The notes under the pieces: generated by a model
The model's input: only the letters and a program-made list of their open reading frames with translations
The model's database searches: none
What the model was told of the DNA's origin: nothing
IMG/VR virus record: IMGVR_UViG_3300030085_003139
Coordinates: 1-59,661 of that record
Source: a virus
Taxonomy: Duplodnaviria > Caudoviricetes
DNA length: 59,661 nucleotides
Direction: 5' to 3' (one strand)
In this document: positions 2,695 to 59,661 of the stretch, one piece after another
Position numbering within the stretch: position 1 is the stretch's first letter
Layout of the letters: every line of letters starts with the position of its first letter
Made by a program: the position numbers and the translations under genes

Positions 2695-3180
2695 ATGAAA
2701 GTAGAAGCGACCGTCGAAAACTGCGAAGAATGCAGTGGCACGGGTAAGATATCATATGAACGGCCAGAGCCGTGGATATCTAGAGATAGCCCCCCATCAT
2801 TAGAAGAGGTTACAGAAGACTGTAACGAATGCGGCGGTTTAGGAACCGTGCAAGTAATTAATTTAAATTCGGAGGAAAAAATGCTGACAACAATAACAGA
2901 TAAAAGACCCACGTTAAAAGAGGCTCAAGATATAGTCGGTGGTTATGTAGAAATGGTCATAGATACTGACCTAATGCAACTCATGGTCGATGAAGAAGGG
3001 CTCTTGAAAAATTTACCCTTCAATCCTGAAGCCAGCAAAATGGCAGATCGCCATATTGTAGGTAACGCGCTTGTTCTAAAGGGCTCTGCTATGTGGACGC
3101 ACGAAGAACCACCCGCGCAACAACCCATCGACGAAATGCTCGACGGCATCTTTAAAAAAGTTTTTAAAGATAAATGGTAA
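2695..3180 (+). CDS. DnaJ-type zinc finger fused to a DUF3846-like domain
   Basis: CEECSGTG and CNECGGLG; then LKEAQDIVGGYVE...DEEGLLKNLPFNPEAS...IVGNAL. Confidence 0.7.
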   Translation: MKVEATVENCEECSGTGKISYERPEPWISRDSPPSLEEVTEDCNECGGLGTVQVINLNSEEKMLTTITDKRPTLKEAQDIVGGYVEMVIDTDLMQLMVDEEGLLKNLPFNPEASKMADRHIVGNALVLKGSAMWTHEEPPAQQPIDEMLDGIFKKVFKDKW

Positions 3181-3193
3181 AAAACACGGCGCC

Positions 3194-3454
3194 GTGGTAC
3201 GCTTAGCTATGACAAATAAATTAGAAAATATGATCATAGACGCTAAAGTCACAACCGAGGTATTCACCGACGCGCTCGATGAATGCTTCGGTTACGCCTG
3301 CGACCCCAGTGTCGTCTATACATCAGCTCTTCAAACTGTCCTGCTTAGTATGCTACGGCACGCCCACGATAAACAAAGCGCCATAGAGACGGCCAAGTTC
3401 TGTATTACAGCCGCCTCAATCATGGACGAACAAGAAGAAAGCACCATCCACTAA
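3194..3454 (+). CDS. Hypothetical protein
   Basis: ORF coupled to the next gene by TAATG; start codon uncertain. Confidence 0.6.
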   Translation: MVRLAMTNKLENMIIDAKVTTEVFTDALDECFGYACDPSVVYTSALQTVLLSMLRHAHDKQSAIETAKFCITAASIMDEQEESTIH

Positions 3455-3642
3455 TGATATTCATTAATAAAGAAAAACACCTCATCGACGTCATATCCTC
3501 GCGCAAGGCCGCTGAGAAAGAATACGACGATATCGTTTGGGATTACGGGGTCAACGACCCACGGCTCGCGGAGCTCGCAAAACAAATCGAAGAATACGAA
3601 GAGCTCGAAAGAGACGGCGTCACCATCGCACCGAATTTTTAA
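3454..3642 (+). CDS. Hypothetical protein
   Basis: 62-aa ORF with translational coupling. Confidence 0.65.
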   Translation: MIFINKEKHLIDVISSRKAAEKEYDDIVWDYGVNDPRLAELAKQIEEYEELERDGVTIAPNF

Positions 3643-3658
3643 TGTTTCACGTGAAACA
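3643..3658. other. parS: parS site 1 (chromosomal ParB/Spo0J-type)
   Basis: Exact palindrome TGTTTCACGTGAAACA, intergenic. Confidence 0.85.
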
Positions 3659-3798
3659 ATTGAAAATCGTTTAAAAACAATGACTTACGGGTGCGACACT
3701 ATGTCGCATAGTAAATACCAGTAAGCTGTGGTACTCTTACGTATCGAACAAAGTTCGATACGTTATTTGACATCGTTGATTTTAGCCGACTAGGGCAA

Positions 3799-3814
3799 TG
3801 TTTCACGTGAAACA
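3799..3814. other. parS: parS site 2
   Basis: Exact palindrome TGTTTCACGTGAAACA, intergenic. Confidence 0.85.
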
Positions 3815-3861
3815 ATCGAGCCCGATAATGTCTATTCCACTTTTAATATGAGGTTAATATT

Positions 3862-4611
3862 ATGGTTAAAATAAAACCAGTTAACAATGCATCCAGCGAC
3901 ACAAATCGGTATTGCGGACCGGCTGTGATTAGCGCTGTAACGGGAATGACTACAGGAGAAGCTGCAAGGCTAATCCGACATGTCAGCGGTCAGAAAATGG
4001 TGAAGGGTTCACATACCTTCCACGTTCTTCGAGCCCTGTCACTTTGTAACATTCACAATAGGAGAATGACGGTTGCCACCAGATTTAGCGCTCCGACGTT
4101 AAATCAATGGCTTAAAGGTTCAAAAGACATGCGAACCTCTGGCCGAGTTTTCCTGATCGTTGCAGGCAATCATTTTCAGTTGGTCGAAGGCCGACGATAT
4201 GTTTGCGGAAGAACACGAGACATAGTCAGTGTTCGAAGCAAGTATGTGAAGCGACGATGTCGAGTCGAAACGGTTCACGAGCTAATCAGCGAAGGTAGAA
4301 TACAAATACCAAACGCAGCTCGTAAGCCCGTGGATCACGCGGCCAGCGATAGAGCCAAAGCACAACGCTTTGCTAAAAAGCTGGACGTCACAATTGATAT
4401 CGAAAGATATTACGATTATGACAACCGCTTCTCCCAGTATTGGGTCAATGGATATAAAGACGTTGATGCCAATGGCGAGGACATTGATTTTTCCCACGAA
4501 GGAATTATCGACGGTCACTGCGCTTACGACTGGGGCGAAGTTCTTGATAAGCTTCACGCCATCGCAGCCTACCGCGAAGAGCATGGATACAATATCAAGG
4601 AGGACGCGTAA
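3862..4611 (+). CDS. Hypothetical protein, possible papain/C39-like N-terminal domain
   Basis: YCGPAVISAVTG and a later LIVAGNHFQLV; GAGGT RBS. Confidence 0.6.
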   Translation: MVKIKPVNNASSDTNRYCGPAVISAVTGMTTGEAARLIRHVSGQKMVKGSHTFHVLRALSLCNIHNRRMTVATRFSAPTLNQWLKGSKDMRTSGRVFLIVAGNHFQLVEGRRYVCGRTRDIVSVRSKYVKRRCRVETVHELISEGRIQIPNAARKPVDHAASDRAKAQRFAKKLDVTIDIERYYDYDNRFSQYWVNGYKDVDANGEDIDFSHEGIIDGHCAYDWGEVLDKLHAIAAYREEHGYNIKEDA

Positions 4612-4901
4612 TGGCTTGGGAAGGAAGAGGTATGGTTTGGAAAAGTAAAGTGAGGTGCCGCAATTGCGGCGCCCACGCCAAAAAACTTACCGAACGATAT
4701 TGGGGGCACGAGCCCTATAACGGCAATCTCCAGATTGTTAAGGATAGCTCATACCAACACAAAGATACGGACGGTAACGTCGTTACTAGTTACAGCCTGT
4801 CTCTTTGGGATGGAGAATCCTATACCCTGTACGCTGGTAAATTCTGCACCAATAGATGCGCCATCGACTGGGCAAACGATTGGGCAAGAGATCCAGAATA
4901 A
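4611..4901 (+). CDS. Putative zinc-binding protein
   Basis: CRNC and FCTNRC; TAATG coupling. Confidence 0.65.
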   Translation: MAWEGRGMVWKSKVRCRNCGAHAKKLTERYWGHEPYNGNLQIVKDSSYQHKDTDGNVVTSYSLSLWDGESYTLYAGKFCTNRCAIDWANDWARDPE

Positions 4902-4910
4902 TAAACAACG

Positions 4911-4937
4911 AACCCCGCTTCACGGCGGGGTTTTTTT
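4911..4937 (+). terminator. Intrinsic terminator
   Basis: AACCCCGC-ttcacg-GCGGGGTT followed by a T run. Confidence 0.85.
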
Positions 4938-5055
4938 ATGCCAAAAAGTAAAAGGGGCGCATGATAAAACATACACCCCTTAATCTGATAAGCACAGATC
5001 CGTAGCATAATTTGTTTATAAGTTGTATTGTATTTAACGTCAATAGGAGGACACC

Positions 5056-5262
5056 ATGTCTAAAATTAGAAAAATCAAAAAAGAAGGCCATTTGCCTGAT
5101 TACTACTATGTGCTGCCAAACGATGATCGGATCGACATTCTTGTTCTGCGATCCAAAAAAGGAAATACTTATACAATGCACCTGCCGCAGCCGCACGGGG
5201 TCAAAGTCTTTCATAAGATGAACGAAATGCGCGAATTCCTGATCGCGGCCTTCGGTACATAA
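5056..5262 (+). CDS. Hypothetical protein
   Basis: AGGAGG RBS, 68 aa. Confidence 0.7.
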   Translation: MSKIRKIKKEGHLPDYYYVLPNDDRIDILVLRSKKGNTYTMHLPQPHGVKVFHKMNEMREFLIAAFGT

Positions 5263-5512
5263 TAAACGCCTTATATGTATATATGGCCAGAAAAATAAAA
5301 AAAATAATTTTTCAAAAAGTAGCCGCAACCCGTGTAACCGTGTAACTTTCCCAAATTCCCCTTATTATATAAGGGCTTATTAGTTACAAAGTTAGTTACA
5401 CTGTATTTTTACAGGTGTAACCGTTCCTTAATATCAAAAAGTCGTTATGCGGGTTTGAAAATAAAAAAAATAATTTTTGGTTTTCTGGCTATATATACAT
5501 AAAGCGTGTTTA
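5263..5512. repeat. Nested inverted/direct repeat region upstream of terS (ori or pac candidate)
   Basis: Imperfect inverted repeat of about 30 bp at the ends, duplicated A/T tract, TGTAAC/GTTACA boxes around CCCTTAT-tat-ATAAGGG. Confidence 0.7.
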
Positions 5513-5569
5513 CAAGAAGATATCCTTCGGTTTAAGGTGAGCTTACTTTATTTTACGAAGGAGAACAAA

Positions 5570-6208
5570 ATGAATAAAGCGGATCGTTATGTCATTCCCG
5601 AAGGTGCGGAAAGACCGAAGAAGAAATACTTAAAAAAATACTTGCCTGAAGATAAACCCTTAAACAGGCGTGAAGAGCTCTTTGTTAAAGAACTGGTTGC
5701 TAAAGACGGCCAGATAACTTTGCGCGATGCAGCCATCAATGCGGGATATCCGCCAAAGTCTGCTCACGTGCGAGCTCACGAACTTACCAACCCAGCGATT
5801 AAACCAAACGTTGTGAAAGCTATTAAGCAGTTTAGAGCTGAGCTGGATCAAAAGTATGGCGTCGAATATAAACGGCACCTTAGAGATTTACAGGTGATCC
5901 GCGATGCTGCTTTGGATAGTGGCGCCTTTAGTGCTGCCGTCCAAGCTGAGTACCGTCGAGGACAAGCGCAAGGGGACATTTACGTTAACAAGTCTGAAAT
6001 AAGGCATGGAACTATTGATAGCATGTCAAAAGAAGAAGTGCTAAATGCTATTAAAGAACTAAAGCAAACATATGACCCAGTCACTATTGACATTACACCC
6101 GTCGAAGAAAGCGACAAAAACCGCGACAAAGCCAGAAAGCGCGTTTTGGGCTCAGTTTCGGAAGAAAGTAACGACACTGAGGAAGTCTTGGAAGATGGAA
6201 AGAATTGA
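5570..6208 (+). CDS. terS: Terminase small subunit
   Basis: LNRREELFVKE...AAINAGYPPKSAHVRAHEL...P.VVKAI HTH pattern typical of TerS; AAGGAG RBS before 5570. Confidence 0.75.
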   Translation: MNKADRYVIPEGAERPKKKYLKKYLPEDKPLNRREELFVKELVAKDGQITLRDAAINAGYPPKSAHVRAHELTNPAIKPNVVKAIKQFRAELDQKYGVEYKRHLRDLQVIRDAALDSGAFSAAVQAEYRRGQAQGDIYVNKSEIRHGTIDSMSKEEVLNAIKELKQTYDPVTIDITPVEESDKNRDKARKRVLGSVSEESNDTEEVLEDGKN

Positions 6209-6536
6209 AAACTGGGCGGGGCTCGGTTTTCCTGACGTTTTCATTAATGCGGACGGGCAATTCCATTTGCTGGAATTGAAGTATTCTGACGGTAACGCGG
6301 TCAAGCTGCGCCCCCATCAAGTGTCTTTTCATAGCCGTAATCAAAACGGTTCAAGCTGGATACTGGTAAAGCGTGCCCCAGAAAGTAAAACGTCTGGATA
6401 CGATATGTCTCTTTATCATGCATCGCAGGCTATTGAAGTTGCTCAAAATGGTTTAAAGACACAACCAAAGTATAAGTTGAATAGTCGAGATAACTGGGAA
6501 AATCTTTTTGACGCTATTACAAAAGAGGGCTCATAA
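6072..6536 (+). CDS. VRR-NUC/Holliday-junction-resolvase-like PD-(D/E)xK nuclease
   Basis: RIEN...GFPDV...LLELK...LRPHQVSFH. Confidence 0.75.
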   Translation: MTQSLLTLHPSKKATKTATKPESAFWAQFRKKVTTLRKSWKMERIENWAGLGFPDVFINADGQFHLLELKYSDGNAVKLRPHQVSFHSRNQNGSSWILVKRAPESKTSGYDMSLYHASQAIEVAQNGLKTQPKYKLNSRDNWENLFDAITKEGS

Positions 6537-6664
6537 TGTTTTGGCTATTGGAGTATCTTGTTAAATGGCTGGATAGGGATAAAATGGATATAGACGAAGA
6601 GCTCAGGCAGGTTAAAGAGCGGCTGGGCTGGGATTGGGATAATGAGGACAAGCGGGGCAAATGA
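6536..6664 (+). CDS. Small hypothetical protein (42 aa, not in ORF track)
   Basis: TAATG coupling; MFWLLEYLVKWLDRDK...; ends at a terminator. Confidence 0.55.
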   Translation: MFWLLEYLVKWLDRDKMDIDEELRQVKERLGWDWDNEDKRGK

Positions 6665-6679
6665 GCCCCGTTTTTTTTT
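6653..6679 (+). terminator. Intrinsic terminator
   Basis: CGGGGC...GCCCCG followed by T9. Confidence 0.75.
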
Positions 6680-6738
6680 ATTTGACAAAAAAAGCTGTAT
6701 AGTTTACCGATTTTTACATAGCAGTTTAGGAGGTCAAA

Positions 6739-7422
6739 ATGACAAATGCTCAAGTAAAAATTAATCCAAGTTATCTTAAAGCCGCGATGATATGCGCATC
6801 AACTGAGGGAACGCGTTATTATTTAAACGGCGTTCATTTCATTATTACTAAAGATTGGGTTCGCTTAGTGGCTACCGATGGTCATCGCGCGTTTTATTAT
6901 AAAGACGCGCTGGAAGTGACCACGCGCAGCGCTTTTCCAGATAATAGTTTGGAAGTTATAGTCGATTTAAAAGACTTGAAAAAAGCTTTAACAGGCATCA
7001 AAGTAAATGCTGGGGCGATTGATGTAATGTTTGAAAAAGAGCATGCTTTAATCAATGGGGTTCAATGCCAGTATGTCGACGCAACGTATCCAGATACTAC
7101 CCGTATCATTCCGCAATCTGATTACCAGCCAGAATGTTATCAAAAGTTAAATGACCAGCCCTTTGAAATTCAGTTGGACGCGGCATATGTTGGGGACTTT
7201 GGTAAAATGGCAAAATTGCTAGGGGTTAGTCCCTCAAACGTCTTTATTCAAAAATTTGGATTAAATCCCGCAATTGTTAATTTTGGGAAGGATCAAACTT
7301 GCTTCGCATTGATTATGCCCAAGCGTCTTTTGGATAGCGCTGGGGCGGGAATTCCGTTTCATACCATGCATTCGATTGCGTCGACCGTTGTTAATAAACC
7401 CCAGCTTCGGGAGGCGTCTTAA
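6739..7422 (+). CDS. DNA polymerase III beta-clamp-like protein (truncated, about two domains)
   Basis: RYYLNGVHF...LVATDGHR and ATYPDTTRIIP are DnaN signature segments; 227 aa only. Confidence 0.75.
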   Translation: MTNAQVKINPSYLKAAMICASTEGTRYYLNGVHFIITKDWVRLVATDGHRAFYYKDALEVTTRSAFPDNSLEVIVDLKDLKKALTGIKVNAGAIDVMFEKEHALINGVQCQYVDATYPDTTRIIPQSDYQPECYQKLNDQPFEIQLDAAYVGDFGKMAKLLGVSPSNVFIQKFGLNPAIVNFGKDQTCFALIMPKRLLDSAGAGIPFHTMHSIASTVVNKPQLREAS

Positions 7423-7823
7423 TGTATGAGGTTTATAGATGGGAGCGGGATCAACTTGCTCAAACGTACTGGGCAGGCAATGGAAAGCACGAAAAGAAAT
7501 TAGAAATTTTGCACGATTTAATAGATGATAGAATTGTTCATAAAAGAACGTTATCCCCTTGCGGCTCTTATTACACTTCAACCAAAGCTTATATGCCGAG
7601 CTCACAAAAAGGCGGGAAAAATTGGCGTTTGGAGCAGTTAAGACGGGCTAAAAATGCGTACTATCGTTTATTTAATGACGGCGATTATAATCAACTTTTT
7701 GACAATGCTTTAAAAGAATTGCCGCCATTGATGGGGTATCGGTCACTTTGCCCCAGAAATATTGACCGCGTTATGAACTTAAAAATTAAACGCGCTTGGA
7801 ATGAGCAATTCGTGAATTTATAA
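7422..7823 (+). CDS. Hypothetical early protein
   Basis: TAATG coupling, GGAGG RBS. Confidence 0.7.
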   Translation: MYEVYRWERDQLAQTYWAGNGKHEKKLEILHDLIDDRIVHKRTLSPCGSYYTSTKAYMPSSQKGGKNWRLEQLRRAKNAYYRLFNDGDYNQLFDNALKELPPLMGYRSLCPRNIDRVMNLKIKRAWNEQFVNL

Positions 7824-7824
7824 A

Positions 7825-7903
7825 AAACTTGCCATTTACTGAAATTTACTATTTAACTGGGGGCGGGGTAAAACCGCCCCTTTTTAGTATGAGGTAAAAA
7901 ATG
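7825..7903 (+). promoter_or_regulatory. Repeated promoter-hairpin-RBS element, copy 1
   Basis: AAACTTGCCATTTACTGAAATTTACTATTTAA, GGGGCGG/CCGCCCC stem, T run, GTATGAGGTA, ATG. Confidence 0.8.
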
Positions 7904-8266
7904 AAAGTACATCACACGAAATATAAGCCGCGTTATGAGGCGTATATTCTGGATCATATCGACGTCGATTATGAAAACCAGCCATTGACCACCAAAGAGC
8001 AAAAAATTGAATTTTTGGCCAAGCGCTTCAATCGTGAAAAGAAAACAGATATTGAGCAAATGGGAACTAGGCCAGCTCTAATTGATTGGTTGCAAGGCTT
8101 AGCAATTCCGTTTGCTTGCTATAATGGGGAAATTATTGATCTGGCCATTGAATTGGGCTCAATAGATGAAAACCCCAGCAATAAACTTTGTGAACGCGTA
8201 GTTGAAAATTATTTCCCGTTTATGGCTAACATTATTTTGAATATGGAAGGGTTTAACGATGTTTGA
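7901..8266 (+). CDS. Hypothetical early protein
   Basis: Starts at the element's RBS/ATG. Confidence 0.75.
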   Translation: MKVHHTKYKPRYEAYILDHIDVDYENQPLTTKEQKIEFLAKRFNREKKTDIEQMGTRPALIDWLQGLAIPFACYNGEIIDLAIELGSIDENPSNKLCERVVENYFPFMANIILNMEGFNDV

Positions 8267-8684
8267 AAAATTAGGATTATTTCACACTCCCGAAGATTGG
8301 GCAGAATTGCAGGATAAAATTGAAGCGCACGGCAGCGGGGAACGAACGGTTGCGACGCTATTTGCTGCGATGGGCTGGAATTTAGCAATTCATTTATTTG
8401 ATAAAGCGGGTAGCGAGCACACCCGCCCCAGCGGTTTAATTCCTGAAAAGCTTAATTCATACCCCGTTTTAGCTAAAGCGCCCTATCACGGCAGGATAGG
8501 CGGGGATTATGCTGTTTTAGTGCGTCGCGATGATAACAGTTTGCACCCCTACGTCGTTGCTCATTGGAACAAAGACGCGAAAACGAATTGGAATTGGGGC
8601 AACTATTTTGAAACTTATGAGCAGGCTTTAGAGTGCTTTATTCAAAAGAGCTCAAAACAAACAACCGAAGCAAAAACGGGTTAA
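8259..8684 (+). CDS. Hypothetical early protein
   Basis: Overlaps the upstream stop; WNWGNYF motif. Confidence 0.7.
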   Translation: MFEKLGLFHTPEDWAELQDKIEAHGSGERTVATLFAAMGWNLAIHLFDKAGSEHTRPSGLIPEKLNSYPVLAKAPYHGRIGGDYAVLVRRDDNSLHPYVVAHWNKDAKTNWNWGNYFETYEQALECFIQKSSKQTTEAKTG

Positions 8685-8763
8685 ACTTTACATTTACGGG
8701 AAATTACTATTTAAATGAGGGGCGGGGGCAATCCTGCCCCTTTTTTAGTATGAGGTAAAAATG
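8683..8763 (+). promoter_or_regulatory. Repeated promoter-hairpin-RBS element, copy 2
   Basis: Colinear and highly similar to 7825-7903. Confidence 0.8.
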
Positions 8764-8871
8764 ACAAATTACGATAAAGACGCAGTTGATAAAGCAATAG
8801 CAACATCAACTAAACCCATTAGCAAAAAAGAGGCTAAGCTTATTCATGCCTTATTAAAGGGGAATAAATAA
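8761..8871 (+). CDS. 36-aa basic microprotein (not in ORF track)
   Basis: MTNYDKDAVDKAIATSTKPISKKEAKLIHALLKGNK directly after the element's RBS. Confidence 0.65.
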   Translation: MTNYDKDAVDKAIATSTKPISKKEAKLIHALLKGNK

Positions 8872-8873
8872 AA

Positions 8874-9137
8874 ATGGCTTACATTTGTTTTAAAAGAGAT
8901 TGGTGGAGGGATAACCCCAAATATCCAAACGGCTTGGAACCCTACGCAGGGGCAAAAAGTTACTTCAAAAATAAAGTTTTCGACACTGAGCAAGAAGCGC
9001 GCGAATTCTGCCAAGAGTACAACGAAAACAACGACGCTGGACGCTATTCTAGAAAAATGGAATTTGAGGAGCTGGATTTGCGGGTAGTTACTCCGCGCGC
9101 CCATGCTGCCCCAAAATACCAGCGTTATAATTTTTGA
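8874..9137 (+). CDS. Hypothetical early protein
   Basis: 87-aa ORF, tightly packed. Confidence 0.65.
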   Translation: MAYICFKRDWWRDNPKYPNGLEPYAGAKSYFKNKVFDTEQEAREFCQEYNENNDAGRYSRKMEFEELDLRVVTPRAHAAPKYQRYNF

Positions 9138-9634
9138 GGGGTTTTGATATGTTAGATAATGAGGGATTTTCAAAAACAGAATTGCAAGACGCGTTCGTTC
9201 GCGTTTTCGATGATTGCAACGGCAATTTGACACATCAAGATTTAGATCGGTTACGCCGTTTTGAATTGATTGAAGTTGAACATATGAACACCATTTCTGG
9301 ACGTAATGAACTTTGGCCAAATGAAAACGATGATAGCAAATTTATATTTTGCACAATGTCCGCCAAATTTAACGCGCGCCAATCGAATAATCATATTCAG
9401 GATCATTTGAGATTATTTGAACGTCGCTTGGCTAATACTTGGCTCTATTTCTTTGGAACTGGCCGTTGCCATTGTCAGCACGATTGTTGCGGCTGCGCTT
9501 TTGATCAGTGGACTACATGCCGAATTGATCCTCATTCAATAGGGGTTTTTAGCCTTCCAGATAGCTCTTATAATAAAAACCACCAATACCAGCTAGTTTT
9601 TAATATTGAGCATTGCATCGGCTATAATTACTAA
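9134..9634 (+). CDS. Cys-rich hypothetical protein
   Basis: CHCQHDCCGC cluster; start may be the downstream ATG. Confidence 0.65.
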   Translation: MRGFDMLDNEGFSKTELQDAFVRVFDDCNGNLTHQDLDRLRRFELIEVEHMNTISGRNELWPNENDDSKFIFCTMSAKFNARQSNNHIQDHLRLFERRLANTWLYFFGTGRCHCQHDCCGCAFDQWTTCRIDPHSIGVFSLPDSSYNKNHQYQLVFNIEHCIGYNY

Positions 9635-9715
9635 AACTTGCTATTTACTGAAAATTACTATTTAAATGAGGGGCGGGGGCATTCCCGCCCCGTTTTTGTA
9701 TGAGGTATTAATATG
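9634..9715 (+). promoter_or_regulatory. Repeated promoter-hairpin-RBS element, copy 3
   Basis: Colinear with copies 1 and 2. Confidence 0.8.
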
Positions 9716-9952
9716 AACAAAGAACGAAGAAAAATAATCAAAGACGTGATTGCCAAATTGGATGACGCCTATTCAAAGTTAGAGGAAGTTTACGAAAGCG
9801 AATATGAGGCAATCGAAAACATGCCAGAAAACTTGCGCTATTCATCCAAAGGCGAAGAACGCGAAGAAACAGCCGACTATATAGAAGAACATATGAGCAC
9901 GGTTGATAGCTTGCGCTGCGATCTCGAAGAAATAGCGGAGGGTACGCGATGA
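9713..9952 (+). CDS. Hypothetical acidic coiled-coil protein
   Basis: MNKERRK...ENMPENLRYSSKGE. Confidence 0.75.
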   Translation: MNKERRKIIKDVIAKLDDAYSKLEEVYESEYEAIENMPENLRYSSKGEEREETADYIEEHMSTVDSLRCDLEEIAEGTR

Positions 9953-10236
9953 AAAATATAACCAAACATGTAGGGCGCCTTAAACTTGTAAGGCGTCTTA
10001 AAAATAGTCACGTCGGCAATCCCCAGTTTGAGCTGGCGATTATTGAACATGAAAAGCAAAATTTAGGCTGGACGTTTAGAACGCCTAAAAATTCAATGCT
10101 TGGCTATTCTATCCAGAATTATCTGGATAAAATTGTTATCGTTTCAATTGGGACGCATTACGGCTGCGCGACATTAAACAGTGTCGAATTGTCCCCATGC
10201 CAAGCGCCGTTTATTTATCAAGAGGGGGGCGCGTAA
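9949..10236 (+). CDS. Hypothetical protein
   Basis: ATGA overlap, GGAGG RBS. Confidence 0.7.
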   Translation: MKNITKHVGRLKLVRRLKNSHVGNPQFELAIIEHEKQNLGWTFRTPKNSMLGYSIQNYLDKIVIVSIGTHYGCATLNSVELSPCQAPFIYQEGGA

Positions 10237-10433
10237 TGGGCACCAAATATGCAAATTGTTATGATGAAACGGGGGCGGACATTTCAATTGCTGTCCCCAG
10301 CGATATGACGCTGGATCAATTCAAAGACAGCTATCCAGAATATCAGTTTAGGTTTTGGCAGGAATACAGCGATCGCGAGCTGGCCGAATTCCGTTTGTCC
10401 CAAATAGATGATTACGATCTGGATTTATATTAG
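10236..10433 (+). CDS. Hypothetical acidic protein
   Basis: TAATG coupling within track ORF 10197..10433. Confidence 0.6.
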   Translation: MGTKYANCYDETGADISIAVPSDMTLDQFKDSYPEYQFRFWQEYSDRELAEFRLSQIDDYDLDLY

Positions 10434-10479
10434 CGTCGCCAGTTCGCGCATCCAGCGCGCTTACAAGCTTTTAAAACCC

Positions 10480-10510
10480 ATCCCCGCTACCAATGGCGGG
10501 GATTTTTTTT
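10480..10510 (+). terminator. Intrinsic terminator closing the early island
   Basis: ATCCCCGC...GCGGGGAT followed by a T run. Confidence 0.8.
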
Positions 10511-10535
10511 ATCCCTGTTAAAAATCGGTAAAACA

Positions 10536-10800
10536 GCGCCCCGCGCGCCGTCCCCAGTTAGCCTAAAACTTATGAGCTGGCAGCGAAAACCGCGACGGCT
10601 GCCGCGCGATGTTTGGTTGCTGGTTGGTGGTTGTTTGCCCCAGATCCGCGCGCCGCGTGCCGTGATTGCTGGGGATTGGCGCCAGATCCAGCGCCCCAGA
10701 TCCGCTACCAGTTAGCCGTCAATTTGCGGAAAATGTGCCCAGATCCGCGACTAGCTGGCCGCGCGCCGCGTGCCGCGTTTAGGATCCCCACATCCAATAG
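10536..10800. repeat. GC-rich non-coding repeat tract
   Basis: CCAGATCC four times plus CCACATCC; CGCGCGCCGCGTGCCG twice. Confidence 0.65.
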
Positions 10801-10942
10801 AGGCTAAAAAACGCAGCAAAAACAACGATTTAGAGCCCAAAAAAATTTTACCCCCTCCCCCCCACACGCGCGCATAAAGTGCATGTTCGTCACAAACAAT
10901 ATAAAAATAAAATTATACGAATAATTTCAGTCGGTTATGGAA

Positions 10943-10958
10943 TGTTTCACGTGAAACA
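10943..10958. other. parS: parS site 3
   Basis: Exact palindrome TGTTTCACGTGAAACA upstream of terL. Confidence 0.85.
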
Positions 10959-11084
10959 TCGTAAACAGTAAAAAGGTTTGCATGTTTCGGTTTTGCTGGT
11001 AAAAGTTTGGGTATAAAAATTTTTAAAAATTCAAAACATATCATCTTATAATATCTTATATGGTGAGACGTTTCAGGAGCCTCG

Positions 11085-12545
11085 ATGCCGACTATAAATG
11101 CCGAGAATGCCAGCGAAAGATTATTGAAGCTTCAATATCGGTTGGCGCAGATCGAAAAGAAGGAGCGGTCATACGAAGATTTTCTAACTTTTGTGAAACT
11201 TATGTGGCCAGAATTTATTGCAGGAAACCATCATAAGATAATCGCAGATAAGTTGCAGAGGATCGCATCGGGCGATTTAAAAAGATTAATCGTCAATATG
11301 CCTCCGCGACACACGAAATCAGAGTTTGCATCCTTCTTGTTCCCCGCGTGGATGATGGGGCGCAATCCCAACATGAAGATAATTCAGGCAACACACACAA
11401 CCGAGCTCGCCGTGGGCTTCGGTAGAAAAGTGAAGAACCTTCTGGACAGAGACGACTACAAGGAACTTTTTGACACGCGATTAGCTGCGGACTCAAAAGC
11501 TTCTGGACGTTTCGACACGGATCGCGGCGGCATGTACTATGCTGTTGGTGTGGGCTCGAACTTAGCGGGACGTGGTGGTGATCTTGTGATAATCGACGAC
11601 CCGCACTCGGAACAAACCTTAATGTCGAACAATGGTTTTGACGACGCGTGGGACTGGTACACTGGCGGACCTCGACAGCGTTTGCAGCCCGGCGGCGCCA
11701 TTGTTGTGGTTATGACGCGCTGGCATGAGAAGGATCTGACGGGGCAGCTTATTCGATCGCAGGCTAGGGACGACAAAGCGGATCAATGGGAGGTTGTCGA
11801 GCTCCCTGCCATAATGCCAAGCGGCAAATCTTGTTGGCCAGAGTATTGGTCTTTAGATGATCTTGAGCGTGTGAAGGCTTCTATTCCGCCCAGCAAATGG
11901 AACGCGCAGTACCAACAGGATCCCACGGGCGACGATAACAGTATCTTGCGCCGTGAGTGGTGGAACGTGTGGGAAGAGGATGATGTTCCTGAGCTTGAGT
12001 ATGTGATACAGAGTTATGACACGGCGTTTTCGAAGAAGGAGACTGCGGACTATTCTGCTATTACGACGTGGGGTGTGTTTTATCCAAAGCGTGACGGGGC
12101 GCCATCTTTGATACTTTTGGATGCGAAGAAGGGTCGGTGGGATTTTCCTGAGCTCAAGCGTGAGGCGTGGGATCAGTTTAACTTCTGGGATCCAGAGACC
12201 GTGATCATTGAAGCGAAGGCGACGGGCATGCCGTTGACGCACGAGCTGCGGAACATGGGTATACCTGTTGTGAATTTTACGCCGAGTCGGGGGAATGACA
12301 AGGTAAGTCGGGCTCATAGTATAGCGCCGTTGTTTGAGGCGGGGATGGTTTGGGCGCCAGATGAGCAGTGGGCACATGAGTTAATTGAGGAGTGTGCGGC
12401 GTTTCCGAACGGTGAGTATGACGATTATGTTGATAGCATGACGCAGGCGTTGATGCGTTATCGGCAGGGTAATTTTGTACAACTGCCCACGGACGATTGG
12501 GAAGAGAGTAGTGATTACGTGGAACCGAGGACGTATTATGGGTAA
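11085..12545 (+). CDS. terL: Terminase large subunit
   Basis: NMPPRHTKS Walker A, VIIDDP Walker B, MTRWH, nuclease SYDTA and YDDYVDS. Confidence 0.95.
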   Translation: MPTINAENASERLLKLQYRLAQIEKKERSYEDFLTFVKLMWPEFIAGNHHKIIADKLQRIASGDLKRLIVNMPPRHTKSEFASFLFPAWMMGRNPNMKIIQATHTTELAVGFGRKVKNLLDRDDYKELFDTRLAADSKASGRFDTDRGGMYYAVGVGSNLAGRGGDLVIIDDPHSEQTLMSNNGFDDAWDWYTGGPRQRLQPGGAIVVVMTRWHEKDLTGQLIRSQARDDKADQWEVVELPAIMPSGKSCWPEYWSLDDLERVKASIPPSKWNAQYQQDPTGDDNSILRREWWNVWEEDDVPELEYVIQSYDTAFSKKETADYSAITTWGVFYPKRDGAPSLILLDAKKGRWDFPELKREAWDQFNFWDPETVIIEAKATGMPLTHELRNMGIPVVNFTPSRGNDKVSRAHSIAPLFEAGMVWAPDEQWAHELIEECAAFPNGEYDDYVDSMTQALMRYRQGNFVQLPTDDWEESSDYVEPRTYYG

Positions 12546-15166: not shown

Positions 15167-17596
15167 ATGGGACTAAGGCCAAAGAATCCAGTTGCTTCTT
15201 TTGTAGAACGGGAAAACGACGATCCGCTAATTGAAGAGGCTGGCGTTGATCTGGATATAGAGATGCCGGGCACACGAGTTGCTTCGGACGAACCTGTAGA
15301 TGGCATTGATTTTATTGACGAAGAAGACGGTGGGGTCATTGTAGACTTTGATCCGCAGGCCATGTCTATGGCGGACGGCGGTGATTTTTTTGCCAACTTA
15401 GCGGAAGACATGGATTCTGGTGATTTGGGTGCGATATCCAGTGATTTAATATCTCAGTATGTTTCGGCTAAGGAAAGCCGTGGAGACTGGGAAGAAGAAT
15501 ACGATAAGGGTTTGGATCTGCTTGGTTTTAAGTACGAAGACAGAACGCAGCCTTTTCGCGGCGCTACGGGCGTAACGCATCCTATGTTGGCGGAAGCCGC
15601 CACGCAGTTTCAGGCTCAGGCATTCAATGAGCTCTTACCACCAGAAGGACCTGTGCGCACGCAGATTATGGGGCAGTTAACTCCTGAGAAAGAGGCACAA
15701 TCCAAGCGCGTTAAGGAGTTTATGAACTACTACATAACCAATGTTATGGAAGAATATACCCCTGAAATGGATCAAATGTTGTTTTATCTGCCCTTGGCAG
15801 GCTCAACATTCAAGAAAACATACTTTGATGAGGCAATGGGGCGCGCAGTAAGCAAATTTGTTCCCGCAAAAAACCTTGTCGTCCCGTATGACGCAGCAGA
15901 TTTGGAAACATCTCCCTTTATTGCGCAAGAAATACGCATGCCGTGGAACAATCTACGCAAACTACAGGTCGGAGGTTTCTATGTTGATGTCCCTGTAAGC
16001 CCGTCTCAGGCGCCGATGGACGATACAACCGATACAATTGACGGTATCGACGGAATGTCCGCATCAAACATTGATTATGACGTCACATTGCTGGAATTTC
16101 ACGTGGATTTGGAATTGCCGGGCTATGAAGAGAAGGATGAAGAGGGCGAACCAACAGGAATTATGGTTCCTTACGTCGTTACGATAGCCGAGGACACTGG
16201 TGCGATACTGGCTATACGCAGAAATTTCCGCGAGGACGACGATCAGAAGACAAAAATCCCATATTTTACGCATTATAAGTTTTTGCCGGGCTTCGGGTTC
16301 TATGGTTTAGGGTTAATTCATACAATTGGCGGTCTTTCACGCACCGCGACCGCTGCATTGCGGCAATTGATTGACGCGGGGACACTTTCTAACCTTCCAG
16401 CGGGTTTCAAGGCTCGCGGCCTACGGATCAGGGAAGATGCAGAACCGTTACAACCGGGTGAATTTAGGGATGTAGACAGCCCCGGCGGTGCTATTCGCGA
16501 TAGCTTGATGCCCTTGCCGTTTAAAGGACCTGACGCTACGTTATTTAACCTGTTGGGCTTTGTTGTTCAGGCGGGGCAGCGATTTGCAACAATCACGGAC
16601 ATGAAGGTTGGTGACGGCAACCAACAGGCAGCGGTAGGAACGACGGTTGCTATGCTGGAACAGGGGGCTCGTGTAATGAGCGCTGTTCACAAGCGTCTTC
16701 ACTACGCAATGAAGAACGAGTTTAAGATTCTGGCGCGTGTTATGTCGGAAAGCTTACCGCAAGAATACCCCTTTTCTGTTGCGGGTGGCGATCAGGCGGT
16801 TATGGCCAGCGATTTTGACAATCGTGTTGACATCATACCTGTATCAAATCCAAATATTTTTAGTCAGGCGCAGCGCATTGCTTTGGCGCAGACACAGATG
16901 CAGATGGCGGCTCAGGCGCCAGATCTTCACGATATGTACGAGGCGTACAAACGGATGTATGACGCATTGGGCGTTCGGGATATAGATAAGATCTTAAAAC
17001 CCAAACCAAGTCAGGAGCCACAGCCAAAAGATCCTGCACAAGAAAACATTGATGCTTTGGATCAGATACAGCTTCGAGCTTTTCAGGGGCAAAACCACGA
17101 CGCACATATTATGTCACATCTTGTGTTTGGTGCGTCAGGCATTGTTCAACAACAGCCAATGGTTGCGGTTACTCTTCAGAAGCACGTTATGGATCATGCG
17201 CGCGTGAAATCTCAGGAGATGGCGTTACAGCAGCTTGGCGTGCAGGAAATGACACCAGAGATCCAAGTGCAGTTTGAGCAGTTGGTTGCTCAGAACATTG
17301 CGCAGGAAATGCAGGCAATGAAACAGTTGTCCGCTCAGATCACAGGTGAGCAGGGCGCCCCAGATCCATTAATCGGACTTAAAGAGAAAGAGCTTCAGAT
17401 TAGGCAGCAGCAGGTTCAGGCCAACATTGCTAACGATCAGGCGGAGCTCCAGTTGGATCAGGCTAAAGCACAAGAACGAGCACGCGAATTTGATGAGCGC
17501 ATGGATCAGCAAGAGCGCTTGGCAAATAGAAAATTGCAAGCGAGCGCAGAACGTGAGATAATGCGATTACAGGCACAACAGCAACGGAGACAATGA
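15167..17596 (+). CDS. Portal protein
   Basis: 809 aa after terL; HPMLAEAATQFQAQA, GFYGLGLIH; Gln-rich C-terminal barrel as in P22-like portals. Confidence 0.88.
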   Translation: MGLRPKNPVASFVERENDDPLIEEAGVDLDIEMPGTRVASDEPVDGIDFIDEEDGGVIVDFDPQAMSMADGGDFFANLAEDMDSGDLGAISSDLISQYVSAKESRGDWEEEYDKGLDLLGFKYEDRTQPFRGATGVTHPMLAEAATQFQAQAFNELLPPEGPVRTQIMGQLTPEKEAQSKRVKEFMNYYITNVMEEYTPEMDQMLFYLPLAGSTFKKTYFDEAMGRAVSKFVPAKNLVVPYDAADLETSPFIAQEIRMPWNNLRKLQVGGFYVDVPVSPSQAPMDDTTDTIDGIDGMSASNIDYDVTLLEFHVDLELPGYEEKDEEGEPTGIMVPYVVTIAEDTGAILAIRRNFREDDDQKTKIPYFTHYKFLPGFGFYGLGLIHTIGGLSRTATAALRQLIDAGTLSNLPAGFKARGLRIREDAEPLQPGEFRDVDSPGGAIRDSLMPLPFKGPDATLFNLLGFVVQAGQRFATITDMKVGDGNQQAAVGTTVAMLEQGARVMSAVHKRLHYAMKNEFKILARVMSESLPQEYPFSVAGGDQAVMASDFDNRVDIIPVSNPNIFSQAQRIALAQTQMQMAAQAPDLHDMYEAYKRMYDALGVRDIDKILKPKPSQEPQPKDPAQENIDALDQIQLRAFQGQNHDAHIMSHLVFGASGIVQQQPMVAVTLQKHVMDHARVKSQEMALQQLGVQEMTPEIQVQFEQLVAQNIAQEMQAMKQLSAQITGEQGAPDPLIGLKEKELQIRQQQVQANIANDQAELQLDQAKAQERAREFDERMDQQERLANRKLQASAEREIMRLQAQQQRRQ

Positions 17597-57787: not shown

Positions 57788-58048
57788 ATGGATACAAAAA
57801 AATGGGCGAGTGTGCTTGTACCACGAGAAACCTACGAGGAGTTGGTGGCCGTGGCATTCATTGAGGGGCGCACAATTGGCGGTCAATTACGCATGATGTT
57901 TGAGTTTTGGAAAAGCAAAAATTTGACGCCAAACGATTTGAAAGTCGTGCAGAGTCAAATAAGAAAAAACAAAGCGGCTAGAGACGAAGCCAAAAAAGAA
58001 GAGCTCGACGCTGCCGCCAAAGAAGAATTAGATAAGATCGTTATTTAA
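57788..58048 (+). CDS. Putative ribbon-helix-helix transcriptional regulator
   Basis: Strand WASVLVP, helix RETYEELVAVA, EGRT turn, helix IGGQLRMMF. Confidence 0.6.
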   Translation: MDTKKWASVLVPRETYEELVAVAFIEGRTIGGQLRMMFEFWKSKNLTPNDLKVVQSQIRKNKAARDEAKKEELDAAAKEELDKIVI

Positions 58049-58242
58049 ACTCGATAACCTTTACTACGCCATCTGGAAGTTATTTTTTTTAGTTGCGCCT
58101 GAGCGCGCCATAAGTCCTGTTGCGCGCTCGGCGGGGCATCGTTTCGTCGTGCCGTGTCTTCAAGATTATCGACTATGGTATTCCAATACTTCAAAGTTCT
58201 TTCATCTAAGTAATGCAGTGGAATACGTTCGTCTTCAGTCAT
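58045..58242 (-). CDS. Hypothetical protein
   Basis: End of the leftward operon. Confidence 0.6.
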   Translation of the reverse strand: MTEDERIPLHYLDERTLKYWNTIVDNLEDTARRNDAPPSAQQDLWRAQAQLKKITSRWRSKGYRV

Positions 58243-58441
58243 TTTTTATTTGTCTCCTTCCGCCACGATTGTCTTTCCTACGGAAAAACAAGTTGTACCG
58301 CTTAGCTTGGCTGTAGACGCACTGTGGAGAGACGTCCAGCGCGCGAGCGGTTTCAGCTATAGTATACCCATCTTCAGAAAATTTTCGATAATTTTCTAAC
58401 GGTATACCTTTTTTAAGCGGATGCTTGCTCGGTTCACTCAT
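58235..58441 (-). CDS. Small HTH protein
   Basis: GYTIAETARALDVSPQCVY. Confidence 0.7.
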   Translation of the reverse strand: MSEPSKHPLKKGIPLENYRKFSEDGYTIAETARALDVSPQCVYSQAKRYNLFFRRKDNRGGRRQIKND

Positions 58442-58679: not shown

Positions 58680-59005
58680 GATACCCTCCAGACACGATAG
58701 GCGCCGTCCCTTCTGTCGAGTTTGGCCGCTTTCGTAACAACGCCTTTGACGCCGCGTTTTTTGCCCCAGAAATTATGTATAGAAGCTTTAAGGATCTTTG
58801 CCTCCTTACTGTCGGCTACTAATACACTGCTGCCAGCAACCATTTTGCTGGCCAACAAAGACCATCGCCCAGATGTTTCAGGTACGGGTATCTTTTGCGT
58901 TACGTCATACAAAACTTTACCCGCTTCTTTTGCCTCGTGAATAGTGCGGACATCAGAAGTCTCTGTTTTTCTACCAACTTGATCCAAAATAAACGTCCCC
59001 CTCAT
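58676..59005 (-). CDS. Hypothetical protein
   Basis: IP.P...W...M..G.SV...RVWR pattern. Confidence 0.6.
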   Translation of the reverse strand: MRGTFILDQVGRKTETSDVRTIHEAKEAGKVLYDVTQKIPVPETSGRWSLLASKMVAGSSVLVADSKEAKILKASIHNFWGKKRGVKGVVTKAAKLDRRDGAYRVWRVS

Positions 59006-59397
59006 ATCGCGATGACCACGGCAACAATTAAAATTGCAATCAGTAGAGCCCAGATAACCATACGCTTACGCTTCTGACTTTCTGTTTCTGCTACCAGTTG
59101 CCCCTGAACAGAACGTTCGACGGCTTCTACAAAAGGATCGACCTTTGGCTCCTCAATCGTGCGTATACGATCGCGCGCCACGGGCGTCTCTTTGGACTTG
59201 GCGTTTTGTTTAGCCCATTTGTTGATTTCGGTTTTAGACCAATGTTTTTTCTTTTTGTATTTTTGTTGACTTGGACTAATACCCGTTACTTCTTCGGGCT
59301 CTGGAAACGTTTTAAGCCGTGTACGACGGTAAATGGTTTGTACAGACAAACCCGTGATTTCCGACACTTGGTCGATATTATATAATTGTTTTGGCAT
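59002..59397 (-). CDS. AlpA/excisionase-like HTH protein with a C-terminal TM helix
   Basis: IDQVSEITGLSVQTIYRR...FPEP...W; KRKR then MVIWALLIAILIVAVVIAI. Confidence 0.75.
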   Translation of the reverse strand: MPKQLYNIDQVSEITGLSVQTIYRRTRLKTFPEPEEVTGISPSQQKYKKKKHWSKTEINKWAKQNAKSKETPVARDRIRTIEEPKVDPFVEAVERSVQGQLVAETESQKRKRMVIWALLIAILIVAVVIAI

Positions 59398-59415: not shown

Positions 59416-59661
59416 TTAAATTAATTTTTCTTTTTTTGATGAGCCATAAACTTGTTCAATTTCTAGCCCCATCAAAGTGGCCTTACCCCTCTTGTCTACA
59501 TAGAATTCAACGTAAGCCTTAAATATTTTATTAAGAGATTTATAGCAGTCGCAGACTACAAAAACTTTTTCTTCTCCTAATCCACTTAGGGCAACAGCCG
59601 TTTCAATTTCAAACGCGTGGGGGATAAAACCTTTTTTCTTGACAGCAATCTGCGCCCTCTT
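59416..59661 (-). CDS. 3' part of the junction-spanning hypothetical protein
   Basis: In frame with the ATG at 167; TAA at 59418-59416. Confidence 0.7.
   Translation of the reverse strand, partial: KRAQIAVKKKGFIPHAFEIETAVALSGLGEEKVFVVCDCYKSLNKIFKAYVEFYVDKRGKATLMGLEIEQVYGSSKKEKLI
59561..59661. repeat. Terminal overlap, copy 2
   Basis: Matches 1-101. Confidence 0.97.

Follow-up and report, generated by a model that had tools for sequence, protein, structure and literature searches.

Chromosomal-type parS sites at operon heads of a marine podovirus that encodes neither ParA nor ParB

Why should a bacteriophage that encodes no partition protein carry the centromere of a bacterial chromosome? 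The question is raised by a complete virus record in IMG/VR (IMGVR_UViG_3300030085_003139; 59,661 bp, 100% complete by CheckV; this whole stretch is hereafter called the window), in which the 16-bp palindrome TGTTTCACGTGAAACA occurs exactly at three places (parS sites 1 to 3, Table 1) and nowhere else in the window at up to three mismatches. Chance would supply 0.32 matches and none of 100 dinucleotide-preserving shuffles reaches three, while all 16 positions agree with the parS consensus TGTTNCACGTGAAACA at every one of the three sites. The sites fall outside long open reading frames (ORFs), site 3 being overlapped only by an antisense ORF of 43 amino acids. The starts of sites 1 and 2 are 156 nt apart, and the three sites together bracket the ORFs between 3862 and 10433, which include a small-terminase-like gene (5477-6208; PHROG 51, E 9e-11). 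A preliminary description, made from the letters alone, had reported these three exact copies as intergenic and as bracketing an early region with the small terminase, and it is upheld on each of these points.

That description had also seen no ORF resembling ParA or ParB, and six-frame searches of the window with hidden Markov models (HMMs) at E values up to 10 bear it out. There were no matches in the window to the ParB family (PF02195, PF17762 and TIGR00180, covering ParB_N and HTH_ParB), all run alongside control genomes that matched, nor to the ParA ATPase (PF13614, AAA_31), which was matched in 14 of 14 control genomes; six-frame HMM searches of the window for an integrase or resolvase likewise returned none. 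Judged by its gene content, the phage is non-integrating and without a ParA or ParB of its own. In TerL and DNA polymerase A its nearest relatives are 023Pt_psg01, the Pelagibacter phages HTVC027P and HTVC023P, and DSL-LC04 (48-63% identity), and its genes follow the same order as in those phages (replication module, small terminase, terL, portal, GroES, capsid), so the window is, by gene content and order, an HTVC023P-type marine podovirus. PMC9599517 describes 82 genomes of this type with a G+C content of 42.1 +/- 6.4%; that of the window is about 45%.

The sites are not peculiar to the window. Conservation was assessed in 80 IMG/VR loci fetched by TerL (75-96% identical, 815 kb in total), which contain 26 exact copies of the 16-mer, all 26 of them 50-306 nt upstream of terL, compared with no copies in the same 815 kb for 60 control palindromes with permuted half-sites. 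With up to two mismatches allowed, a site lies within 400 nt upstream of terL in 32 of the 80 loci; the stricter pattern TGTTYCACGTGRAACA is found within 400 nt of terL in 29 of the 70 loci whose upstream sequence extends to 350 nt or more, and overall a counterpart syntenic with site 3 is present in 30-32 of the 80 relatives. The 16-mer is invariant between lineages in which its flanks can no longer be aligned, and it is unchanged across lineages whose TerL proteins differ by 25-73%. On a TerL tree (quick IQ-TREE, with L139 left out for a TerL translation shorter than 400 amino acids, and with L124 and L132, which have one- or two-mismatch variants, counted as lacking the site under the strict pattern), the site is clustered in at least four clades with 4-6 changes, a degree of clustering that none of 500 label shuffles matches.

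Placement is as regular as sequence. Clades without a site at terL sometimes have one before the portal gene (L136, L146 and L183) or elsewhere. The two-site arrangement upstream of gene 3862-4611 is kept in seven relatives, at -216 to -321 and at -59 to -63, two of which are only 56% identical in that gene, and four further relatives have a single site at -119 of its homologue. In three distant relatives with TerL proteins about 27% identical (L062, L024 and L074), three to five exact sites lie within about 0.9 kb upstream of terL, and these clusters look like a centromere array. The cultured phage HTVC027P (MN698241.1), which grows on Pelagibacter HTCC1062, has a one-mismatch site, CGTTTCACGTGAAACA, at 16412-16427 between the convergent genes gp31 and gp32; in the transcriptome reported in the relevant section of PMC12753301, the nearby genes gp30, gp33 and gp34 are placed in two extra temporal clusters. 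On this comparative evidence the parS sites are under strong purifying selection in the phage group and are recurrently placed at operon heads.

The same 16-mer is found in bacterial chromosomes, where its role is that of a centromere. In a metagenome-assembled genome (MAG) titled Maricaulis, two copies flank mnmG immediately upstream of rsmG-parA-parB, and the ParB domains (ParB_N, HTH_ParB and ParB_C) and ParA domains of the neighbouring gene products were confirmed with Pfam. A MAG titled Rhodobacteraceae likewise has two copies, and the identical sequence stands beside parA-parB in the MAGs G007 and G003. Across a sample of 81 alphaproteobacterial genomes (one of them unpublished, G042), 76 have the 16-mer at no more than one mismatch, usually as two copies about 2 kb apart, versus 3 of 81 for a reversed control palindrome. 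Variation follows the same course on both sides: the variants of host parS (an outer C, a central CATG, C at position 5 and G at position 12) are those seen in the phages. By sequence and by pattern of variation, the phage palindrome is a bona fide chromosomal host-type parS, as the preliminary description had proposed. Three genomes of the same class sample (G014, G087 and G069; 1.4-2.1 Mb) depart from the norm of two copies, with 7-16 parS-like sites, many of them far apart; these lie on the genomes' own contigs, and no link between them and the phage was found.

To what protein, then, would the phage sites be addressed? The 16-mer is present in at least 118 IMG/VR stretches, whereas two control palindromes of matched composition gave 2 and 5. 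Among these 118 site-carrying loci, a ParB-like match was obtained by tblastn in one and a ParA match in none; 39 of the loci have one or more proteins in common with the window, the other 79 have none, and all-against-all clustering of their ORFs yields no protein family present in more than 25 of the 118. A common phage-encoded binder is therefore unlikely, and the pattern points to a binder that is predicted to be host-encoded; a factor whose specificity is conserved across phyla, as that of host ParB is, fits the range of carriers. By the same survey, orphan parS would seem to be common among uncultured viruses, a ParB-like gene lying nearby in only that one locus. In the second-largest set of carriers, 20-25 small contigs, the genes encode a DNA polymerase of the protein-primed type, a terminase of the phi29 type, a head protein and an upper collar connector, which makes these contigs phi29-like by gene content. 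Contigs of this kind (L101, L005, L009, L023, L107 and others) have one to four exact parS each, and L101 has one in both terminal inverted repeats (132-147 and 11579-11594). Their parS sites are consistent, by analogy, with the published biology of phi29 and Spo0J.

We consider it probable, at roughly 0.6, that host ParB loads on the phage parS sites and thereby links the genome, which is not integrated, to the ParABS system of the host, as in phi29. After DNA entry, host ParB, a cytidine triphosphate-dependent clamp, would load at the phage sites, and a complex of the partition type would form on the phage DNA. The complex would couple this unintegrated genome to host ParABS, so that it is positioned, retained and segregated like a chromosomal origin when lytic growth is slow or deferred. 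What the phage might gain is either to have its genome kept and segregated while infection is slow or deferred, or to have it positioned within the cell. An invariant site, divergent flanks and no common phage protein agree with a site that acts in cis and is recognised by a host factor, and the cis-only recruitment of host ParB advanced in the preliminary description draws support from this comparison. We infer both the binding of ParB and its consequence, namely segregation or retention rather than regulation or titration. Pelagibacter, the host genus known from culture, retains a ParA-ParB gene pair according to a preprint (10.64898/2026.04.03.716430), and MAGs that contain relatives of the phage carry the same parS.

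Several observations weigh against this reading. Neither HTVC023P nor 023Pt_psg01 nor DSL-LC04 has a site at one to two mismatches or fewer, which, together with the 41 of 70 relatives that have enough upstream sequence and no site at terL, makes the site dispensable for the group. Every relative of 35-42% G+C is without a site, and most relatives with one have a single copy. The group is described as lytic (PMC12753301) and no carrier state is documented, so a need for partition is assumed. Partition alone also leaves unexplained why it is terL that all exact copies in the 80 relatives precede; the scarcity of large intergenic regions may be the reason. Finally, the MAGs into which relatives of the phage have been binned carry the titles Rhodobacteraceae, Verrucomicrobia, Maricaulis and Halieaceae, the Maricaulis MAG described above containing a contig of the HTVC023P-type group, and binning of phage contigs is unreliable. 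As the titles span four taxa, binning assigns no single host. The Caulobacter-type host with PopZ and MipZ envisaged in the preliminary description finds no support: nothing ties the phage to it, the G+C content of the window is 45%, and Pelagibacter strains are the only cultured hosts of the group.

The position of the sites at operon heads would also suit a different use of the same protein. Host ParB may bind the sites for a regulatory or antagonistic rather than segregational payoff, the main alternative, though in our view a rather unlikely one: ParB at the operon heads would hold down the block beginning with gene 3862 and the terL/structural block as long as phage copies are few, and replication would then multiply parS, titrate ParB, free the late genes, remove ParB from the origin of the host chromosome and so arrest segregation and division in the host. 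Sites do head transcription units (terL, portal in L136, L146 and L183, and gene 3862), the palindrome lies 1-20 nt after a TATAAT in L136, L146, L153 and L134, and in L133 it occupies the whole gap from TTGACA to TAAAAT. According to PMC12753301, phages of the group lack an RNA polymerase of their own, and host RNA polymerase must therefore be steered. In P. aeruginosa, ParB is reported to repress promoters beside parS3 and parS4 (PMC5521831), and replication of the mobilisable island SGI1 raises parS copies and destabilises its helper plasmid (PMC10954446). Other observations speak against this alternative. Hexamers resembling a -10 element and ending 0-12 nt upstream of the palindrome are not enriched (15 of 50 contexts, 4 of which are host MAG loci from L220 and L221, versus 35% at control offsets; p 0.81), in the clade of the window the best -10 is found about 90 nt downstream of site 3, the HTVC027P site sits between convergent genes, and the phi29 sites are mostly inside genes. 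More speculative, and rather unlikely, is a scheme that joins the two uses: phages of this most abundant pelagiphage-type group, called lytic and non-integrating, would persist by means of ParB loaded on their parS sites as silent, actively segregated episomes in dividing marine bacteria that do not sporulate, and ParB at operon heads would keep the structural genes silent until the ParB pool is outnumbered through replication; if true, it would amount to a one-motif, protein-free switch between carrier state and lysis.

Promoter-proximal sites in several lineages would also suit an operator for a dimeric DNA-binding protein encoded by the phage and not recognised as ParB by Pfam, in which case the identity with parS would be coincidence or mimicry, and the window does contain small ORFs that look by eye, from their translations, like helix-turn-helix or ribbon-helix-helix proteins (for example 57788-58048, 58235-58441 and 59002-59397). 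We regard this as improbable. A match at 16 of 16 positions, with variation at the very positions that vary in host parS, would be a remarkable coincidence; the 16-mer outlasts the divergence of TerL and of its flanks and recurs in the unrelated phi29-like contigs; no protein family spans more than the 25 of 118 carrier loci noted above; and no HTH_ParB-like segment is found in the window at E values up to 10. It is more improbable still that the element acts not as a protein site but as a nucleic-acid hairpin, be it an RNA leader or 3' untranslated region (UTR) hairpin or a DNA cruciform. The palindrome is perfect, the frequent phage variant TGTTCCACGTGGAACA is altered in both arms in a compensating manner, and site 1 occupies a 3' UTR position and site 2 a possible 5' UTR position. 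Yet as RNA it folds weakly (-4.7 to -5.7 kcal/mol, z -1.2 to -1.4, with 19-22 of 200 shuffles folding equally well), and one-sided variants that break pairs occur in L133, L135, L137 and L261; a purely structural role is therefore unlikely. Invariance of the loop and of every stem base across lineages is not required of a hairpin, the sequence equals that of host parS, and an Rfam scan of 3300-11200 gave only sub-threshold matches, none of them at the parS sites. Loading of host ParB for segregation or retention is the reading that we prefer.

The surroundings of the sites are compiled in Table 1. Between sites 1 and 2, the hairpin at 3739-3763 is predicted to fold at -14.1 kcal/mol (z -4.4), which none of 200 shuffles equals, and two of its stem positions show compensating changes in relatives; together with the TTATTTGACA that follows, it reads as a terminator-like element succeeded by the -35-like TTGACA part of a promoter. 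When the window was compared with four contig sets, none of the 40 single-letter differences listed (1124 more exist) falls in the 16-mers and six fall in the 140-nt spacer; no weight is placed on these counts. A TAGGGTCCCC-like motif stands directly before the terL ATG in many relatives (L134, L140, L153, L185, L197 and others), and the related CTAGGGCAA precedes site 2 in the window.

Table 1. Coordinates of the parS sites and of neighbouring features (positions in the window unless a locus is named).
Feature	Position	Strand	Remarks
parS site 1	3643..3658	.	exact consensus; its first base directly follows the stop codon of ORF 3454-3642
spacer, 140 nt	3659..3798	+	small hairpin at about 3687-3705; hairpin with 11-bp stem at 3739-3763, then TTATTTGACA
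parS site 2	3799..3814	.	exact consensus; 47 nt before the ATG of ORF 3862-4611
gene after sites 1 and 2	3862..4611	+	249 amino acids; given as context, action on parS not claimed
intrinsic-terminator-like hairpin and T-run	10480..10511	+	closes the 3862-10433 gene block
G+C-rich repeat island	10540..10800	.	CCCAGATCCGCG-type repeats; between the terminator and site 3
parS site 3	10943..10958	.	exact consensus; start 142 nt (end 126 nt) before the terL ATG (11085)
terL, large terminase	11085..12545	+	first gene of the structural block; preceded by site 3
parS arrays of distant relatives	L062 10535-11462; L024 2657-3444; L074 240-961		3-5 exact sites each

The product of gene 3862-4611 has no Pfam or PHROG family and 456 homologues, all uncharacterised; Cys18 (within YCGP) and His104 are invariant. 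Its AlphaFold model (predicted local distance difference test score 77) bears a weak likeness in Foldseek to the C39 peptidase domains of PCAT1 and ComA (E 5e-3 to 4e-2), and an Atlas match to Peptidase_C39 (score 0.86) serves as a lead only; on these models it is possibly a papain-like cysteine peptidase, a putative assignment. Among 80 loci with a homologue, parS lies within 400 nt upstream in 11 and is absent from the fetched flanks in 67, and in one contig that is unrelated in other respects a homologue and a parS are 165 nt apart. The gene was considered as an obligate partner of parS and rejected on the 11 of 80 count.

On the terL side, the island at 10540-10800 reaches 62% G+C in a genome of 45% and contains four or five CCCAGATCCGCG-type and three CCGCGCGCCGCGTGCCG repeats; it is a candidate pac site or origin. 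A comparable G+C-rich island is found upstream of terL in relatives both with and without parS, and the idea that it tracks the site was dropped, the mean excess being 0.23 in 23 loci with a site and 0.19 in 31 without. Further inside the bracketed block, the intergenic spaces of early or middle genes contain a cassette in three near-identical copies (7824-7900, 8685-8761 and 9635-9712), each composed of a -35/-10-like TTGCCA...TACTATTTAA, a G+C-rich hairpin with a T-run, and then GAGGT with a start codon. Such an arrangement, with a terminator directly behind a promoter, hints at read-through under regulation. Bases 1-98 of the window recur at 59561-59658, so that it is a circular or terminally redundant assembly, in a record listed by IMG/VR as linear and without end repeats. 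No transfer RNA genes were found in the window, and a nucleotide search of its positions 3000-12000 against cultured phages gave no match.

Were much of the group to recruit host ParB, these would be lytic viruses with a built-in link to host chromosome segregation. Such a link could underlie pseudolysogeny or carrier states, arrest of division, or replication-timed late expression in slow-growing ocean bacteria. It would also extend the principle established for phi29 and Spo0J from spore formers to Gram-negative plankton, in an unrelated and very abundant group of marine podoviruses.

The closest precedent is phi29 itself, a virulent Bacillus phage with five parS sites whose genome is segregated into the prespore with the help of Spo0J, as related in PMC2731898 and in the summary of the same work (Meijer et al. 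2005) contained in PMC9437464. In the phi29 sequence (NC_011048) we recover the five sites, four at one mismatch and one at three, whereas none of 200 shuffles reaches five. The two phages are alike in being virulent or non-integrating, in having no parA or parB, and in carrying several host-type parS sites (five and three, respectively), and the use proposed here for the window, of a host segregation protein in trans, is that of phi29. Even the setting of single sites can be matched, since the phi29 site at 17243-17258 begins on the base after a stop codon, just before a terminator, as does site 1 of the window. By contrast, phi29 is an unrelated, protein-primed phage of 19 kb and the window an HTVC023P-type podovirus of 59.7 kb; the phi29 sites are near-consensus and mostly inside genes, whereas those of the window are exact and stand at conserved intergenic operon heads. 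Phi29 further has Spo0A boxes that suspend its lytic cycle, for which no counterpart was found here with the one candidate tried, a CtrA-type box (TTAA-N7-TTAAC), which is not enriched in the window (two overlapping matches versus 1.28 expected; 37 of 100 shuffles equal this). The host of phi29 sporulates, while the known hosts of the window's group, Pelagibacter, are marine bacteria that do not form spores. Entrapment in a spore is therefore most likely not the purpose, and the benefit would have to be something else.

A second precedent is SGI1, whose two parS mimics hijack the ParABS system of an IncC plasmid (PMC10954446). SGI1 resembles the window phage in carrying only the cis site, with ParB supplied by another replicon, and in the importance of parS copy number; it differs in that it targets the ParB of a helper plasmid and not that of the chromosome, and in being an integrative island and not a lytic phage. 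Its function, stabilisation together with displacement of the helper, has been shown experimentally. Between them, phi29 and SGI1 mean that a cis-only parS which borrows the ParB of another replicon is already known. The chromosomal ParABS centromeres of Alphaproteobacteria and most other bacteria have the identical 16 bp, also as a close pair (about 2 kb apart in hosts, 156 nt here), but the phage sites are on a virus, are not beside parAB, the origin or mnmG, and come with no cognate protein. P1 (parABS) and N15 (sopAB and dispersed sopC) are plasmid-prophages with self-encoded partition proteins and a centromere sequence of their own, and the centromere sites of N15 are dispersed and near phage promoters. 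Like the window, they have centromere sites on a phage genome; unlike it, they are temperate plasmids that encode ParA/ParB or SopA/SopB, whereas the window phage encodes neither and uses the host consensus. Literature searches, supplementary files aside, turned up no mention of parS in phages of the HTVC023P type or in other lytic phages from the sea. Compared with these known systems, the new elements are the group of phages, hosts that do not sporulate and a constant placement of the sites at operon heads.

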